IMG/VR virus record: IMGVR_UViG_3300012347_000312 | Coordinates: 1-50,913 of that record | Length of the DNA stretch: 50,913 nucleotides | Strand: one strand, 5' to 3' | DNA from: a virus | Lineage: Duplodnaviria > Caudoviricetes | Part shown: positions 33,143 to 42,509 of the stretch, in pieces | Layout: every line of letters begins with the position of its first letter | How positions within the stretch are numbered: the first letter of the stretch is position 1 | Made by a program: the position numbers and the translations under genes | The notes under the pieces: generated by a model | What the model saw: the letters and a program-made list of their open reading frames with translations, nothing else | What the model was told of the DNA's origin: nothing | Databases searched by the model: none

Positions 33143-33147
33143 AGCTT

Positions 33148-33155
33148 TATTTACC
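33148..33155 (-). promoter_or_regulatory. Late promoter-like box GGTAAATA heading the baseplate operon
   Basis: GGTAAATA-aagct-ATG. Confidence 0.6.
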
Positions 33156-33186
33156 CAGATCAATATCTGCCCAGTTTATCTAACTG

Positions 33187-33214
33187 TTGACAACTAGTGC
33201 TTTTGTGTTATAAT
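33187..33214 (+). promoter_or_regulatory. Consensus sigma70 promoter for the gp55 gene
   Basis: TTGACA (33187-33192), 16-nt spacer ending TGt, TATAAT (33209-33214); SD AGGAG at 33227-33231. Confidence 0.8.
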
Positions 33215-33241
33215 AAGTAATCTATTAGGAGATTTTTCCCT

Positions 33242-34141
33242 GTGTCAACACCATTAACAAGAACGCCTGCCAAGGTAAATTACCTCAACAATCGCGACAT
33301 TTTAAAAGAAATTCATTTAAGCAAGAACACATATTGCTGGTACCAAGATCGTGTAAACGACCATCAATACGACATTATTTTGCCTAGCTTGAGCAAGATC
33401 AATCAACGTACAATTGCAGAAGCACGCCGAAACAGAGTTGATCGTATCAAACGTGAAACTGGCGAAGTGTTAAACGAAAAGAAAATTCCACACACTGATT
33501 TAGTGTTTCGTATTACCTGTTGGGACCACGTGCCGTTGGCTCCCAAGAAAATTCCAAAAACAGCGGCTAAAAAGAAAAAGATCGAAGACATTCTAGAGTT
33601 TGAAGAACTAATCGAAAATGATGATGGGTTAGATGAAACACTAGAAACACCAGTGCAAGACACTGCAAAAATGCGATTAAACTTCCCGCCGTTTGAGCAT
33701 TATCGGTTAGATGAAGAAAAGAATCCTGCGTTAGTAGGTAGGTCGCACTGGAAGGGCGATTTAAAAACAGGCGAGTTCTCCAAGGACCACGGCAACATGA
33801 CCAAAAAGCTCGCCTTGATGTTTATAAAACTATGCGAACGCTATGCTACTCGTTCAAACTGGCGTGGCTACACTTACAATGAGGAAATGCGTGGACAGGC
33901 TCTACTACAACTATCTCAAATTGGTTTACAGTTTGACGAATCCAAAAGTCAGAATCCCTTTGCATATTACACTGCCGCCATTACTAACAGCTTTACAAGA
34001 ATTCTTAACATCGAAAAGAAGATGCAAAATATCAGAGATGACATTTTAGAAATAAACGGGTTGAACCCAAGTTGGACAAGACAAAACTCAGGAACGGGCA
34101 ACTATGCGTCCGGACCGGTTGTTTCTACCTACAGCGAGTAG
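33242..34141 (+). CDS. gp55: Late-transcription sigma factor, T4 gp55-like
   Basis: NYLNNRDILKEI; YATRSNWRGYTYNEEMRGQAL...FDESKSQNPFAYYTAAITNSF.RIL..EKK; GTG start after AGGAG. Confidence 0.85.
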   Translation: MSTPLTRTPAKVNYLNNRDILKEIHLSKNTYCWYQDRVNDHQYDIILPSLSKINQRTIAEARRNRVDRIKRETGEVLNEKKIPHTDLVFRITCWDHVPLAPKKIPKTAAKKKKIEDILEFEELIENDDGLDETLETPVQDTAKMRLNFPPFEHYRLDEEKNPALVGRSHWKGDLKTGEFSKDHGNMTKKLALMFIKLCERYATRSNWRGYTYNEEMRGQALLQLSQIGLQFDESKSQNPFAYYTAAITNSFTRILNIEKKMQNIRDDILEINGLNPSWTRQNSGTGNYASGPVVSTYSE

Positions 34142-36611: not shown

Positions 36612-38689
36612 TCAAATTTAAAAATTTAACTGTTAAAAACTTTATGAGTGTGGGCAACGCCACACAAGGCATCGACTTTGATCGCAAGGATCTTACCCTT
36701 GTGCTAGGCGAAAACCTAGACCTAGGTGGCGACGGTAGCCGTAATGGCACTGGCAAGACCACAATCATTAATGCTCTAAGTTATGCACTATATGGCAATG
36801 CACTCAGCAACATCCGCAAGGATAACTTGGTAAACAAAACCAACGGCAAGAACATGCTTGTTAGTTTAGACTTTTTTGTAAACAATACTGAGTATAGAAT
36901 CGAGCGAGGTCGCAAGCCCAACGTTCTAAAGTTCTATGTAAACAACGAAGCGCAAGCAGCAACAGACGAAGCGCAAGGTGAGAACAAAGAAACTCAAGAA
37001 GCAATTGAACGAATCCTGGGAATGAGCCACGATATGTTCAAGCACGTTCTTGCACTTAACACATACACCGAACCGTTTCTTAGTTTAAAAGCAAATGAAC
37101 AACGCACTATCATTGAGCAGTTGCTGGGTATTACTTTGCTGTCTGAACGTGCCGACAAGATCAAAGAACTTAATAAAGCAACCAAGGATGGTATTGCACA
37201 AGAAGAGTTTAGAGTACGTGCAGTTCAAGAAGCTAACACTAGAATCGAAGAACAAATCGAAAGTTTAAAACGCCGCAGTGGATTGTGGCAAAAGAAAGTC
37301 GACTCTGATCTAGCATACCTTGCTGCCCAATACGATGAACTTGCTAAGATTGACATCGAAGTCGAATTGCAAGCACATAAAGACTTAGCAGTTTGGTCTG
37401 CAAAGAAGTCACAAGCTGACACCTACAATGCTCTAATTGCTAGAGAAACTGCGTGGCGACAAAAACACAATGCCGAGGTGCAGGCCGCTGGTCGTGCTTA
37501 CTTAGACAAGAATCGTATCAACATCGAAACAGAGTTAGCTGCATGGACTGCGTTAACGGCATACAATCAAAAAGCCAAAGACATTGCTGAACTAGAAAAG
37601 TATATTGCTAGATGTGAGGCTGACGAGAAGAAAGAAAACAAACTTGTTGAAAAGTTAAAGGCCGATGTCGAAGAACTAAAGAACCACAAGTGTTATGCTT
37701 GCGGACAAGACTTCCATGATGCCAATCACGAATCTGTTTTAGAAGCAAAACAAAAAGCTCTACAAGACGCAGCCCTACAAGCACTAGCAACAAACACACA
37801 ATGGATAGAAAATACCGATGCACTCAAAGCACTAGGTGTGTTGGGTGTAAAACCCTCAACACATTATGCAACAGAAGCAGAAGCCATTCGTCATTCTAGT
37901 GAACTCAACAGTTTGAAAGCAGCACTGGATGCCAAGGAAGCAGAAGCCAATCCTTTTACTGAACAATTAGATGAGTTGGAAGAAGTTGTTGTCCCGCCGC
38001 AACCTACAACACATTACGACAAAGAGTCCGAAGCAATCGAACATCGCAGCAGAGTAAACAACTTGCTAGATCAGATTGCCAAAAAGGGCGATGAGAAAGA
38101 TCCGTACACTGAACAAATTGAAGAGATGCAAAAGCAAGCTCTTCAAACAGTAGACTACGAAAAAATCAACGAGCTTACACGTTTACAAGAGCATCAAGAC
38201 TTCTTGCTTAAATTGTTAACTAGCAAAGACTCGTTTGTTCGCAAGAAGATTATTGATCAGAATTTGGCTTATCTAAACCAACGGTTAACTCATTACTTAG
38301 ATCGTATTGGATTGCCGCACACTGTTAAATTTAACAATGACTTATCTGTTAGTATCGAAGAGCTTGGACGTGAACTCGACTTTGACAACTTATCACGTGG
38401 TGAGCGCACACGATTAATTTTGAGTATGAGCTGGGCATTCCGCGATGTTTGGGAATCACTATACCACCCTATCAACTTGCTATTCATCGACGAACTTATT
38501 GACAACGGATTAGACACAGCAGGTGTCGAAAACGCACTTGGCCTGCTAAAGAAAATAAGCAGAGAGCGTCACAAGTCGATTTGGTTAGTATCGCACAGGG
38601 ACGAGCTGGCAGGCCGAGTAGAGAACATTCTCAAAGTAATTAAAGAGAATGGGTTCACATCATACAATACTGATATAGATGTTGCGTGA
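36608..38689 (+). CDS. gp46: Recombination ATPase, gp46 / Rad50-SbcC family
   Basis: KNFMSVG, Walker A NGTGKTT, zinc hook CYAC, signature LSRGE, Walker B LLFIDE, H-loop VSH. Confidence 0.93.
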   Translation: MIKFKNLTVKNFMSVGNATQGIDFDRKDLTLVLGENLDLGGDGSRNGTGKTTIINALSYALYGNALSNIRKDNLVNKTNGKNMLVSLDFFVNNTEYRIERGRKPNVLKFYVNNEAQAATDEAQGENKETQEAIERILGMSHDMFKHVLALNTYTEPFLSLKANEQRTIIEQLLGITLLSERADKIKELNKATKDGIAQEEFRVRAVQEANTRIEEQIESLKRRSGLWQKKVDSDLAYLAAQYDELAKIDIEVELQAHKDLAVWSAKKSQADTYNALIARETAWRQKHNAEVQAAGRAYLDKNRINIETELAAWTALTAYNQKAKDIAELEKYIARCEADEKKENKLVEKLKADVEELKNHKCYACGQDFHDANHESVLEAKQKALQDAALQALATNTQWIENTDALKALGVLGVKPSTHYATEAEAIRHSSELNSLKAALDAKEAEANPFTEQLDELEEVVVPPQPTTHYDKESEAIEHRSRVNNLLDQIAKKGDEKDPYTEQIEEMQKQALQTVDYEKINELTRLQEHQDFLLKLLTSKDSFVRKKIIDQNLAYLNQRLTHYLDRIGLPHTVKFNNDLSVSIEELGRELDFDNLSRGERTRLILSMSWAFRDVWESLYHPINLLFIDELIDNGLDTAGVENALGLLKKISRERHKSIWLVSHRDELAGRVENILKVIKENGFTSYNTDIDVA

Positions 38690-39542
38690 TATAAAGATCT
38701 TACACTTGGAAACAACGGATGTGTGCCAGGCGGCATGCCCGTTGTGTGCTCGCGAAACTGATCCAGAGTTCAACAAGAGTACAAAGCATCACCTCGACAT
38801 GAATAAAATCGTACAGGTGTTTGATACTACTCAAATTTCTAAGTTAGATAAAATGTTTATGTGTGGCAACTACGGTGATCCGGCTGCTGGCAAACACACC
38901 CTAGACATATACCGAGAGTTTCGCAAACTTAATCCCGACATTGTATTAGGGATGAATACAAATGGTGCATTACGAACCCCAGAGTGGTGGCACGAGCTAG
39001 GAAGTATATTAAATCAAACACAAGACTATGTTGTGTTTAGCATTGACGGGCTTGAAGATACCAATCACATCTATCGCAAAAATGTAAGCTGGAGCCACTT
39101 GATAACAAATATCAAAGCATTTGTTGCCGCAGGAGGATCAGCACACTGGGATATGTTGGTGTACCAGCACAATGAACATCAAGTTGACCAATGCCTGCAA
39201 CTTGCACGTGACTTAGGGTTCAAATGGTTTAGATCCAAGGTTTCGTTGCGTAAGCTGACAGATAATTTAAGTTGGCCAACAGGTTGGTTGCAATCTAAAC
39301 AAAACAGTAGTACAATACATTGTCATGCATTAGAAGAGCAAAGTCTTTTTATTGATGCACAAGGTCGGGTAAGTGTTTGCGCCTGGTTAGGGGCAACGCA
39401 AGGAGATACCATAAGTGATGTTGAACAAGTTAGGGCTACCTGGACATCGAGTAAGCCTCATCCTATTTGTTTAAGAATGTGTTCAATGCAGTCATCTGGT
39501 ACAAACTTTACCAACCAATGGAAATACGAAATAGAACTATGA
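38679..39542 (+). CDS. Radical SAM enzyme with C-terminal Cys-rich (twitch/SPASM-like) region
   Basis: CQAACPLC (CxxxCxxC), CGNYGDP, TNG, FSIDG, later C..C..CLRMC. Confidence 0.88.
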   Translation: MLRDIKILHLETTDVCQAACPLCARETDPEFNKSTKHHLDMNKIVQVFDTTQISKLDKMFMCGNYGDPAAGKHTLDIYREFRKLNPDIVLGMNTNGALRTPEWWHELGSILNQTQDYVVFSIDGLEDTNHIYRKNVSWSHLITNIKAFVAAGGSAHWDMLVYQHNEHQVDQCLQLARDLGFKWFRSKVSLRKLTDNLSWPTGWLQSKQNSSTIHCHALEEQSLFIDAQGRVSVCAWLGATQGDTISDVEQVRATWTSSKPHPICLRMCSMQSSGTNFTNQWKYEIEL

Positions 39543-40570
39543 CTGCGAAGATTGTTAAGATTACTCCTACAGAGGACTTGTTCTCTATTACTTGGAGCAT
39601 GCACAAAAGATGCAACAACGACTGCATGTACTGTGGTGACTTCTTGCACGACAACACTTCTCCAGTTAGACCACTTGCTGAGTTGCAAGAACATTGGTTA
39701 CAGGTATTTGAGAAAACAAAGCACCTTGGACTCAAATACAAGATCTCAATCACAGGCGGCGAAGCAGTAATCAACAAGGACTTCAGACCGTTTGTTGACT
39801 GGCTAACTGACAACTACAGCAACAATATTCAAGTTATCGGGCTAACTAGCAACGGAACTTCTAGCAAAAACTACTATCTAGGTCTACTCGAAAAAGTAAC
39901 ATTTTTAACATTGAGTACCCATACTGAAACAATGGATGTGGAACGATTTGTTGATACCGCTATTGCATGCAACACATATTCACAAAATACACCAGGTAAA
40001 TTTTTCATGGTTAACATCATGGAAGAGTACTGGGCACTGGACACAATTAAACATCTTATTGATGTTTGCAAAGCCAACCAAATACGATATAGCATTAACA
40101 AGATCGATTACTACCGGTCTGGGTCAAAAGAGTATCCTGTGTTTGTAATTAACAAACAAAACGTTCCTCGCCCAGATTTGCAAAAGTCGCCAGAAGTAAT
40201 AGAAGCAGCACATCGTGCCATTCAGGATTATGCTAACTTGCACACAGTTCCTACTGATTACTACTACAACGTAGAAGTTGGGTACGACGACGATTCGTCT
40301 ATTAATACGTATGCTACAAGACTCAAGTTTTTGGGTTTTAGCCAATTCAAGGGCTGGCAATGTTCAGCAGGCTATAAACGGATTTCTATTGCGTCAGACA
40401 CTTCTGTGTACAGTGGCGAATGCAATAATCGATTGTTAGGTAAACTTTCAGATAACAGTTTTCAACTTTTGCAGGCACCGGATATATGTTTACAGCGTAC
40501 ATGTACCGGTAACCCAGACGATCTAATGATAAACAAACAAATTTTAGGTGACGACCCCCAGCAAGCATAA
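39539..40570 (+). CDS. Radical SAM enzyme
   Basis: CNNDCMYC, TGGEA, TSNG; C-terminal WQCSAG..GEC..ICLQRTC; likely start MTAK at 39539 (ATGA overlap). Confidence 0.88.
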   Translation: MTAKIVKITPTEDLFSITWSMHKRCNNDCMYCGDFLHDNTSPVRPLAELQEHWLQVFEKTKHLGLKYKISITGGEAVINKDFRPFVDWLTDNYSNNIQVIGLTSNGTSSKNYYLGLLEKVTFLTLSTHTETMDVERFVDTAIACNTYSQNTPGKFFMVNIMEEYWALDTIKHLIDVCKANQIRYSINKIDYYRSGSKEYPVFVINKQNVPRPDLQKSPEVIEAAHRAIQDYANLHTVPTDYYYNVEVGYDDDSSINTYATRLKFLGFSQFKGWQCSAGYKRISIASDTSVYSGECNNRLLGKLSDNSFQLLQAPDICLQRTCTGNPDDLMINKQILGDDPQQA

Positions 40571-40579
40571 TTACTGTTA

Positions 40580-41011
40580 ATGTCGTGGCAATATCAAAAT
40601 CAACTCGTAGAAACTTTACCAGAAGACTGTGTTGGCTTTGTATATCTAATCACCAACATTACTACTCAACGCAAATACATAGGCAAAAAACTAGCAAAAT
40701 TTAAGAAAACAACTTACAAAACAGTTAAACTTAAAAACGGCACAAAGAAAAAAAAGAAAATTAGAGGAAGCATTGATTCTGATTGGCGAGAGTATTACGG
40801 TTCTAGCCCAGAATTAACCAAAGATGTACTAGCATTAGGCACAGCAAACTTTACTCGTGAAATATTGTTTTACTGCAAATCAAAAGCAGAATGCAGTTAT
40901 ATCGAGGCTAGAGAACAGTTTGCAAGGCGTGTGCTAGAATCAGCAGATTATTACAACGGGCATATTCAAGTACGTGTACACGGAAGTCACGTAATAGGTA
41001 AAATTAAATGA
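40580..41011 (+). CDS. Small GIY-YIG family endonuclease
   Basis: GFVYLITN..RKYIGKK, basic insertion, YYGSS, conserved Glu (YIEAREQ), YYN. Confidence 0.8.
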   Translation: MSWQYQNQLVETLPEDCVGFVYLITNITTQRKYIGKKLAKFKKTTYKTVKLKNGTKKKKKIRGSIDSDWREYYGSSPELTKDVLALGTANFTREILFYCKSKAECSYIEAREQFARRVLESADYYNGHIQVRVHGSHVIGKIK

Positions 41012-41796
41012 CAGTATCTCTATTCGTAGGATGTTCTTTTACTTCAGGTAAAGGGTTTGATCTTGAAAAAGACGAGCCGGGCCTATGGGTTAATCAAGTA
41101 CATTCAACTAACAGAGATCTACAAAAAACCGAACTTGTTAATCACGGTGTGTCTGGAGCTTCAAATTCAGAAATTTTCTACAATGCAGTTAGCGGGTTAG
41201 TTAACTTCACTCCTAAGTATATGTTTGTTCAGTGGACTCGAAGCCCACGATACAGAGTACAATTAGGTGTCGAATCTTATGTTGCTAGTCAGTACTTTGG
41301 TATGGACGGCGAAGTATTTGACCACAACTTGCACAGTATAAATTACACCGCTGGGTATCTCGAAGATGTAAGAAATAGATTTCTATCGTTACATCATCCG
41401 CAAGGCGGAATAGTAGAGATAATTAAGTACACAAACACTCTTATAAATCTTTCAAAAACTACAAACACTAAAGTATTTTTTATCAACGGACTGTGTCCGT
41501 GGGATGATCAATTTTTTAATAAAATTAACGGCAACACTCCAAGCGATTACACCAAATACACACAGTATCTACTAGATTCAGACACTAGAAGCGACCAAGA
41601 AGTTTTTACACTTTACAATAAAATCCACGACGAATACACACAAGCTGGCAACATACAACAACAGTACTGGATTAATTTATATAATTCTTTCACTGACAAC
41701 AAAATCGACGTTAACAACGACAACACACATCCAGGCATCAAATCCAATCAGCTGTATTTTGACATCGTCAACAAATCCTTAACAAACACAATTTAA
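41008..41796 (+). CDS. SGNH/GDSL-like hydrolase
   Basis: FVGCSFTSG (block I Ser), NHGVSGASN, VQWT, C-terminal DNTHPG (DxxH). Confidence 0.7.
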   Translation: MTVSLFVGCSFTSGKGFDLEKDEPGLWVNQVHSTNRDLQKTELVNHGVSGASNSEIFYNAVSGLVNFTPKYMFVQWTRSPRYRVQLGVESYVASQYFGMDGEVFDHNLHSINYTAGYLEDVRNRFLSLHHPQGGIVEIIKYTNTLINLSKTTNTKVFFINGLCPWDDQFFNKINGNTPSDYTKYTQYLLDSDTRSDQEVFTLYNKIHDEYTQAGNIQQQYWINLYNSFTDNKIDVNNDNTHPGIKSNQLYFDIVNKSLTNTI

Positions 41797-41799
41797 GCA

Positions 41800-42260
41800 G
41801 TTACGACTCGCACAGGTCAATCTCATGTGCCTAGAGACAACCGGATAAAAACGGGGACGGAAGCCTCGCCGCGCTAGCGAGCACTCAATCACTATCCTTA
41901 ACAGGACGACGATCGCTTAACACCTGCGGTTTGATTGTTTGAACAGAATTTTAAAAGGGAAAAAGACGTAGCAGTGATGCTACACGATCAATATATGTGT
42001 TAGCGTATGTATATTGACCCGCCGTTGTTATAAAGACGCAACTCGAGGTACCGGACAACCGCCTCTGTAATGTTGTAACGCTATGTGGCTGTATGAACTC
42101 AGATGAAGTTCCAGTTTTTATCTTTGCCCTGTGCGGGCAAAGTGTGACCATTGAATCTAGATGAAGCATTAAATCGCTTCGCTCTTGCTTCTTTACTACT
42201 TCTTAAAAAACTGTTGTTGAGCGATAGCGATAACAACAGATGTCTGTAAGACATCTCCTA
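41800..42260 (+). ncRNA. Candidate large structured non-coding RNA (or structured DNA element), family unknown
   Basis: No credible ORF; at least 10 helices, e.g. GTAGCA-GTGA-TGCTAC (GNRA loop), CTTTGCCC/GGGCAAAG, TCAATATATGTG/TATGTATATTGA (G-U pairs favour + strand), CAATCA..TGATTG three-way junction. Confidence 0.6.
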
Positions 42261-42272
42261 GTGTGTTACTAG

Positions 42273-42509
42273 TTAGAAGAAGGGTAATCCTGACTTCTTA
42301 GTTGTTTCCATATTGTCTTTGATGATAGTGCTAATAATTTTTCGTTCCTCTTGACTTAGGTTAAGGGCATGGTCGTAGGTAATACCTCCTCGCATGAACC
42401 ATGACATTTTCAAAGCCTCCTGTCTTATCGCATTACAATCGGTTTCCATTTGGTCAACGATTTGCGAAATTGTGTCTGAGTCGGATGTCAGGAGGCGGGA
42501 GCGAAAAAA
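42273..42509 (-). CDS. Short gp51-position ORF; probable -1 frameshift extension of the gp26-like chaperone (absent from ORF track)
   Basis: Frame opens right after a TAA at the slippery site: FFRSRLLTSDSDTISQIVDQMETDCNAIRQEALKMSWFMRGGITYDHALNLSQEERKIISTIIKDNMETTKKSGLPFF*; internal ATGs at 42449 and 42407. Confidence 0.7.
   Translation of the reverse strand, partial: FFRSRLLTSDSDTISQIVDQMETDCNAIRQEALKMSWFMRGGITYDHALNLSQEERKIISTIIKDNMETTKKSGLPFF
42415..42509 (-). other. Candidate programmed -1 ribosomal frameshift signal
   Basis: Heptamer T TTT TTC (42509-42503), 6-nt spacer, stem GCCTCCTG (42496-42489) / CAGGAGGC (42422-42415). Confidence 0.6.

Follow-up and report, generated by a model that had tools for sequence, protein, structure and literature searches.

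The Polynucleobacter-1 RNA motif continues, beyond the part described in 2010, into a 3′ module with two direct repeats of seven bases, which are identical to each other in 186 of the 189 distinct modules or loci pooled, while the 7-mer itself takes 20 different forms. The three exceptions are single A/G transitions. Because the words must be equal, vary freely and differ between paralogues, the simplest explanation is that one repeat pairs with the complement of the other, and we consider this probable. More tentatively, and at slightly less than an even chance, the RNA may act in cis and prime replication at an R-loop origin, by analogy with ColE1 and T4. Polynucleobacter-1 has been without an assigned function since 2010, and the matched repeats offer a specific mechanism. 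New here are the 3′ extension with its repeats, the class structure and a testable mechanism for a known family; the literature searched, with most subscription papers lying outside it, holds no description of the repeats, of the RNA classes B to D or of an origin in these phages.

The window, the whole stretch of 50,913 nt that was analysed, is a 50.9-kb piece of a large T4-like phage belonging to a freshwater clade; among cultured phages, its portal protein is closest to those of PA5oct, Atu_ph07, Phosso and CBB (45–56% identity). On the plus strand follow gp55, two genes that we take to be gp47-like and gp46-like from reading their translations, two radical-SAM genes (38679–40570) and a SegE-type GIY-YIG gene; then come a gp26-like gene on the minus strand and the head genes. 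The RNA lies in a gap of 476 bp (41797–42272), flanked by convergent genes of 262 aa (plus) and 58 aa (minus). The first-pass annotation had singled this out as the only long gap, and among the gaps checked it is indeed the longest true one, since the sole longer gap in an ATG-only scan, 33143–33670, is filled by a GTG-started ORF of 299 aa. The neighbours are:

40580..41011, plus strand: small SegE-type GIY-YIG nuclease gene (Pfam PF19835, E 6.6e-32)
41008..41796, plus strand: 262-aa ORF matching no family, which separates the nuclease gene from the RNA
42273..42449, minus strand: conserved 58-aa ORF, the convergent right boundary, after the gp26-like baseplate hub gene (PF12322)

The RNA starts 8 nt past the stop of the 262-aa ORF. 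The 58-aa ORF has 257 related stretches among viral contigs. A 72-aa minus-strand ORF at 41951–42169 has no PHROG match and is taken as incidental. At the end of the gp26-like gene, a TTTTTTC run lies on the minus strand (42503–42509).

The 5′ part of the RNA matches the Polynucleobacter-1 family in Rfam far above the cut-off of 37 bits, over model positions 1–141 of 141. With E-values allowed up to 10, the window gave only three further matches, all by chance. The elements described up to the end of the 2010 alignment, together with two pairings absent from the 2010 consensus, are:

41805..41940, plus strand: Polynucleobacter-1 RNA motif (Rfam RF01718) with P1, P2, P3 and three-way junction (92.6 bits, E 1.2e-18)
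41941..42088, plus strand: second half of the RNA as aligned in 2010
41968–83, plus strand: GNRA hairpin
41988–42017, plus strand: stem
42038–76, plus strand: nested stems
42001–06 with 42078–83, plus strand: pseudoknot 1 (99.5% paired, with compensatory changes, in alignment A3)
42024–28 with 42055–59, plus strand: pseudoknot 2, absent from the 2010 consensus (in A3, 100% of cells pair and compensatory changes occur)
41805–07 with 41816–18, plus strand: leader-loop pairing, absent from the 2010 consensus

The motif comes from Weinberg et al. 2010 (PMC2864571) and is named nowhere else in the literature searched. Its supplementary alignment comprises 16 sequences, several of them ~300 bases long and reaching the equivalent of 42086, with pseudoknot 1 included, so about 285 of the 371 bases had already been described. 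The same hairpins and pseudoknot 1 are found here, and the downstream helices of that alignment are met again; it ends short of the repeats, shows no leader pairing and has a GG/CC helix where covariation speaks for pseudoknot 2. The loci studied here place the motif in large T4-like phage contigs. The element had been presented as undescribed, with an Rfam search named beforehand as the check on its novelty; that search returned Polynucleobacter-1, and with most of the same helices present in the 2010 alignment to ~42086 the claim had to be given up. The annotation had also recognised no tRNA, tmRNA, RNase P or group I/II intron, in agreement with Rfam, which likewise matched none of the known small ribozymes, and with ARAGORN, which found no tRNA or tmRNA.

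We collected homologues with a 17-base anchor, which occurs in an estimated 1,800 viral stretches. This yielded 147 distinct anchored loci; 133 were kept once lambdoid coding matches had been dropped, and 124 of these have both repeats. The class A set used for the fold comprises 61 sequences of <95% identity to one another (mean identity 65%). Within 41805–41940, 90% of cells are paired in this set, including GCACA/TGTGC (98%), CAATCA/TGATTG (97%) and GATCGC/GCGGTT (99%). Further values are 89% for the 12-bp stem, 90% for GCAAC/GTTGT, 95% for GAGG/CCTC, 87% for CTTTGCCC, 82% for CTCGC, 83% for TCCT/AGGA and 68% for GTAGCA. An independent alignment of 34 sequences, A3, has 93% of cells pairing, compared with 36–52% in slid controls, and the covariation check among homologues that had been proposed gave compensatory changes in 30 of its 39 pairs. 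Mutual information across the 61 class-A sequences brought out the helices together with both pairings that the 2010 consensus lacks. In the leader-loop pairing, 41806:41817 co-varies between G-C and A-T in 57 of 61 sequences.

G-U cells outnumber A-C cells (346 vs 152), and the class-A upstream loops comprise 32 GNRA and no GNYA loops; for these reasons the plus strand is the one that folds, most likely as RNA. The earlier view of a plus-strand structured RNA is thus borne out, and all stems it listed are present in the sequence. Most of them co-vary among homologues, which upholds the dense structure; the statement that nearly all of the region can pair was too strong. The GG-acaa-CC helix, paired in 50% of cells in fixed register, gives way to pseudoknot 2, in which ACAAC pairs with GTTGT at 42024–28 in 100% (mutual information, 61 class-A sequences). 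The single 371-base sequence folds no better than its shuffles (z −0.39 for plus, −0.95 for minus); its stems of 5–6 bp are as frequent as in the shuffles, and an excess exists only for the two stems of at least 8 bp.

Beyond the 2010 alignment, conservation extends through ACTC plus a 7-mer, a hairpin, TGAC, and ATCT plus the same 7-mer:

42097..42107, plus strand: repeat 1 (ACTC plus 7-mer AGATGAA, the 7-mer at 42101–07), located within or at the loop of a hairpin whose register varies
42122..42142, plus strand: spacer hairpin between the repeats (88% paired, 3 of 8 pairs compensatory in A3)
42155..42165, plus strand: repeat 2 (ATCT plus 7-mer AGATGAA, the 7-mer at 42159–65), with no co-varying hairpin around it

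The repeats are spaced by 48 to 61 nt. A helix GAACT/AGTTC had been proposed around repeat 1; in fixed register it pairs in 49% of cells, and what survives of it is a hairpin of shifting register, as the flanks of repeat 1 co-vary (class A, z −6.5; class B, z −5.1). For the flanks of repeat 2 the same test gave z +1.2, and for pairing between the flank of repeat 1 and that of repeat 2 z −1.6, +0.2 and −0.6.

The identity of the two repeats is strict. The columns 42101 and 42159, 42105 and 42163, and 42107 and 42165 agree in 61 of 61 sequences; hexamers are equal in all 124 loci having both repeats, and all seven positions in 122 of 122 distinct loci, where chance identity at the variable positions is 0.51, 0.49 and 0.61. 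A search with repeat 1 left unconstrained returned 110 distinct hits, comprising 102 matched pairs, 7 chance hits without a hairpin and a single pair with a one-base difference. Hits in genome contigs (n = 67) were set aside as mostly chance, 43 differing between the repeats and 34 of these lacking a hairpin. On a tree of the 61 sequences built without the repeats, whose bootstrap is not settled, the word changed at least 29 times, so the identity does not reflect shared ancestry. Within −420 to +260 nt of repeat 1, no consistent third site, complementary or identical, was present (best bin 18 of 122, G-U allowed). Repeat identity without a complementary partner in the RNA is, as we infer, the outcome to be expected if a repeat pairs with the opposite strand.

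The flanks of the 7-mers give mixed signals on such a hybrid. The commonest flanking difference, G in repeat 1 and A in repeat 2, fits what would be expected of RNA repeat 1 lying on the template of repeat 2, and at offset +7 the rG-dT wobble type is found in 125 loci vs 2 of the reverse type, although these are not independent events. At offsets −1, −3 and −6 the wobble bias has the opposite direction, and the invariant CTC vs TCT block beside the 7-mers would leave two mismatches and one wobble, a point against the hybrid.

The module also ends three other RNA classes, for which our covariance model R1 scored 71 bits (class B), 33 bits (class D) and 25 and 16 bits (class C), and none of which has a family-level Rfam match. 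Classes B (52 distinct modules; L009, L229) and C (39; L007, L236, L259) are found at this same locus in contigs of T4-like phages from freshwater and the sea. Class D is a ~500-nt element in Rhodobacteraceae, mostly within roseobacter integrase islands that carry toxin-antitoxin pairs and no GIY-YIG gene (L348, L349, L353, L355, L357, L358, L368, L403, L412–L421); it was found in 3 of 401 Rhodobacteraceae genomes searched, with up to three copies per genome. In five of six island loci a late-type ATAAATA motif lies ~360 nt upstream, and in four of the ten island loci listed the copy is 0.5–2 kb upstream of a small integrase-like gene, three of these genes having Pfam PF00589 and one, in L420, being assigned from its sequence alone. 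Judging from sequence, the 5′ half of the Polynucleobacter-1 RNA is exchangeable.

Among five long records of the freshwater clade, four have one significant copy of the RNA, and G003 has two, 110 kb apart, with different repeat words that are each self-matched. The second copy (G003:C1:165700-166100) places the Polynucleobacter-1 three-way junction on a class-C-like core. Second pattern matches in G002, G004 and G005 proved on inspection to lie in coding or unrelated DNA, and a weak model match at 274 kb in G002 lies inside an ORF.

BLAST searches of classes A, B and C against cultured phages gave no match. At the syntenic place, cultured RaK2-like phages have a conserved non-coding stretch (72 records) with the order of parts known from the window: two co-varying pairings, a hairpin between short direct repeats, and GNA hairpins. 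There are five copies in CBB, four in 121Q and five in XaC1, on one strand within each genome; in CBB this co-orientation is expected by chance, as 84% of its coding is on the strand of the copies. The copies are more evenly spread than random, with P 0.002 (CBB), 0.026 (121Q) and 0.022 (XaC1), P values that are non-independent given the relatedness of the genomes. A TATAAT promoter-like motif is aligned upstream in eight of nine loci. Of 20 RaK2-like loci, one did not parse; at two variable repeat positions the copies match in all 19 parsed loci, and at a third position in 11 of them.

A descriptor of pseudoknot 2, written after the class-A and RaK2-like RNAs had been seen, found one site in the window, one in G002 and exactly the five copies in CBB, with none in 10 shuffles of each; it also matched 75 of 83 class-A, 46 of 48 class-B and 15 of 15 further RaK2-like loci, and no class C or D locus. 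Profile HMMs gave no cross-match between the RaK2-like RNA and class A, model R1 reached at most 12 bits on the former, and Rfam had no match at the CBB locus. Based on synteny, topology and this post hoc descriptor, the RaK2-like RNA is probably homologous to the Polynucleobacter-1 family. With related copies in cultured Escherichia, Pectobacterium and Serratia phages, the question shifts from metagenomes to the bench.

The several copies per RaK2-like genome behind promoter-like motifs and the ornate fold with its multiple pseudoknots would suit a large RNA or RNP acting in trans as scaffold, decoy or ribozyme, in the manner of GOLLD, ROOL and OLE, with the repeats as tandem sites for a dimeric protein. 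GOLLD, ROOL and OLE are likewise large, pseudoknotted RNAs, and GOLLD and ROOL are associated with phages; none of these families matched in the window by Rfam. Contigs of relatives cover the element in four metatranscriptomes, although they reveal neither strand, ends nor level and the runs holding the element share at most 0.14 of words, the pieces being mostly from relatives. Protein sites usually tolerate differences between copies, and here the copies match throughout the pooled set although A and G are both common at two repeat positions. The different self-matched words of paralogues within one genome argue, at the level of sequence, against the specificity of one protein, and in all classes the RNA is attached to downstream hairpins with loops of a DNA type. 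We regard a trans-acting role as unlikely.

These hairpins lie in DNA of lower G+C content. In the window, G+C is 0.37 past repeat 2, compared with 0.47 for the RNA and 0.41 for the whole stretch. Beyond repeat 2 the classes average 0.27 to 0.35; class A drops there from 0.45 to 0.35, and class D from 0.53 to 0.31. Two elements were delineated in the window:

42176..42182, minus strand: template-strand sequence GCGAAGC, a mini-hairpin predicted to form in single-stranded DNA
42212..42256, plus strand: two hairpins (GCGATAGC mini-hairpin with tandem G-A steps; GTA loop), fold z −5.1 both as DNA and as RNA

Past repeat 2, the hairpins contain tandem G-A steps and have GTA, GCA, GAA or GNNA in the loop. 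Of 73 class-A loci, 61 have a G(N)A or G(NN)A hairpin, 44 of these with a triloop, and 57 have YTTCG within 60 nt of repeat 2. GAA-loop sequences are also present on the opposite strand, so that sequences of GNA-loop hairpins occur on both strands. Mini-hairpins of the type GCGNAGC/GCGNNAGC are far less stable as RNA than as DNA and occur at the priming sites of phage G4 and RSF1010, according to the available text of PMC13037366. The hairpins at 42212..42256 are likely single-stranded-DNA signals, as far as their sequence indicates.

If the RNA is a primer, it would be made by read-through from the gp55-gp47-gp46-GIY-YIG operon, and its folded 5′ part would display repeat 1. While the polymerase moves through repeat 2, the RNA of repeat 1 would pair with the template strand there, the spacer hairpin being looped out, and the RNA downstream of repeat 2 would remain hybridised to the template. 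Cleavage by RNase H would leave a primer, and the displaced strand would expose the mini-hairpins for the loading of a helicase or primase. We favour this primer reading because the downstream DNA is richer in AT, its hairpins are of a DNA type and the copies in cultured phages are evenly spaced; among the roles listed in the first-pass annotation (ribozyme or RNP scaffold, protein decoy, primer of an R-loop origin), it is the one that the new 3′ evidence favours, while none of our tests spoke for a ribozyme or a decoy.

In ColE1, a folded RNA of 550 nt hybridises to the template and is cut by RNase H to a primer, and the helicase is loaded on the displaced strand (PMC5043065, available text). 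The likeness is that of a folded RNA of several hundred bases; hybrid and priming are proposed here. In the work of Masukata and Tomizawa, a G-run of the upstream ColE1 RNA reportedly pairs with a C-run of the template, which amounts to a direct repeat, whereas the repeats here are mixed 7-mers ~55 nt apart. The comparison with ColE1-like origins gave one chance match (E 0.9), and none in 72,556 plasmids.

T4 has at least five dispersed origins, of which the two shown are R-loop sites with a promoter and an AT-rich stretch, and three are near strand switches; they need only ~100 bp and no specific sequence of the unwinding element (available parts of PMC3016281). The analogy to oriF and oriG would rest on the T4-like phage, the dispersed copies in the RaK2-like relatives, the AT-richer downstream DNA as a possible unwinding element and the position at a convergent junction, T4 origins often lying near strand switches; transcript priming is again proposed. 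In contrast, those parts of PMC3016281 describe no conserved folded RNA or matched repeats for T4. They also state that T4 origins are shut off late, and the late-type ATAAATA motif of the islands thus counts against the primer reading. A further point against it comes from G002, a near-complete relative (345 kb, 99%), which carries a single copy and whose GC skew does not switch at that place; GC skew was discarded as an origin marker, as it follows the coding strand in G002, G003 and CBB.

If the primer reading is true, replication in a large group of jumbo phages starts from a ColE1-like folded primer RNA; if not, the identity of the repeats still demands an explanation. A broader proposal, well short of an even chance in our estimate, is that Polynucleobacter-1 is one 5′ variant within a widespread superfamily of structured RNAs that serve as primers in integrative islands and in jumbo T4-like phages. 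A short RNA guide would capture the template at the matching repeat one hairpin downstream, which would make an origin free of initiator protein, with a spacing of ~50–110 kb in RaK2-like phages, and islands with a late-type promoter motif may borrow it as satellites.

Base pairing of the repeats could also serve a DNA transaction other than priming: recombination, either site-specific or by slipped strands, template switching, cutting by the GIY-YIG nuclease under the guidance of the RNA, or a step that mobilises or packages the element. The need for a match in a 7-base core whose word may vary recalls the overlap of a tyrosine recombinase or a guide-target pair, and the integrase-like gene near four of the ten island copies listed points the same way. 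Among 92 motif-anchored phage loci flanked by at least 850 nt, 78 have the GIY-YIG gene upstream; none of eight island loci has it there, and the gene adjoins neither RNA copy in G003, nor the island copies, nor the RaK2-like loci. It is thus the usual, not the obligate, upstream neighbour of the RNA, and since obligate linkage fails on these counts, an RNA-guided or RNA-associated nuclease system of the HEARO/OMEGA type is not supported. The alignments show no inverted arms around the cores, the repeats are only 48–61 nt apart, and in 8 runs no contig joins 42101 to 42159, contigs being prone to drop rare forms. Such a transaction seems decidedly unlikely to us.

The RNA begins few bases past the upstream stop in most loci, and the 2010 table (PMC2864571) labels the motif a probable cis-regulator. 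Together with four terminator-like sites vs 0.8 expected, this would suit a cis-regulatory 3′ element by which the DNA-metabolism transcript is terminated, stabilised or processed at the convergent junction. Such a role would leave the identity of the repeats unexplained. On the plus strand, none of the 61 class-A loci has a U-tract after the last hairpin, and none of the class-A G(N)A or G(NN)A hairpins has five or more T among the next eight bases; moreover, the RaK2-like and island copies have promoter-like motifs of their own and varied neighbours. We consider a cis-regulatory 3′ element very unlikely. Within the window, no sigma-70-like promoter was found near the RNA, although the middle promoters of this clade may differ, and ATAAATA is upstream in none of 53 class-A loci; both results count against the primer reading. 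The only three ATAAATA motifs of the window (4950, 23528, 47255) directly precede ORFs of structural gene blocks and resemble the late promoter predicted for CBB (PMC5259590, available text).

In the loci of PA5oct, Atu_ph07, Phosso and Xoo-sp13 that were examined, the pseudoknot 2 descriptor had no match, which also counts against the primer reading. The syntenic site of PA5oct (L422:3588-4900), which also lacks an Rfam match, has a sigma-70 promoter of perfect sequence and an AT-rich tract, along with long hairpins and tiny ORFs in the annotation; the four published ncRNAs of this phage are located away from its syntenic gap and were not considered further. The Sinorhizobium phage Phosso (L434:2950-3850) has an RNase HI gene close to its syntenic site, directly behind an unannotated stretch rich in hairpins.
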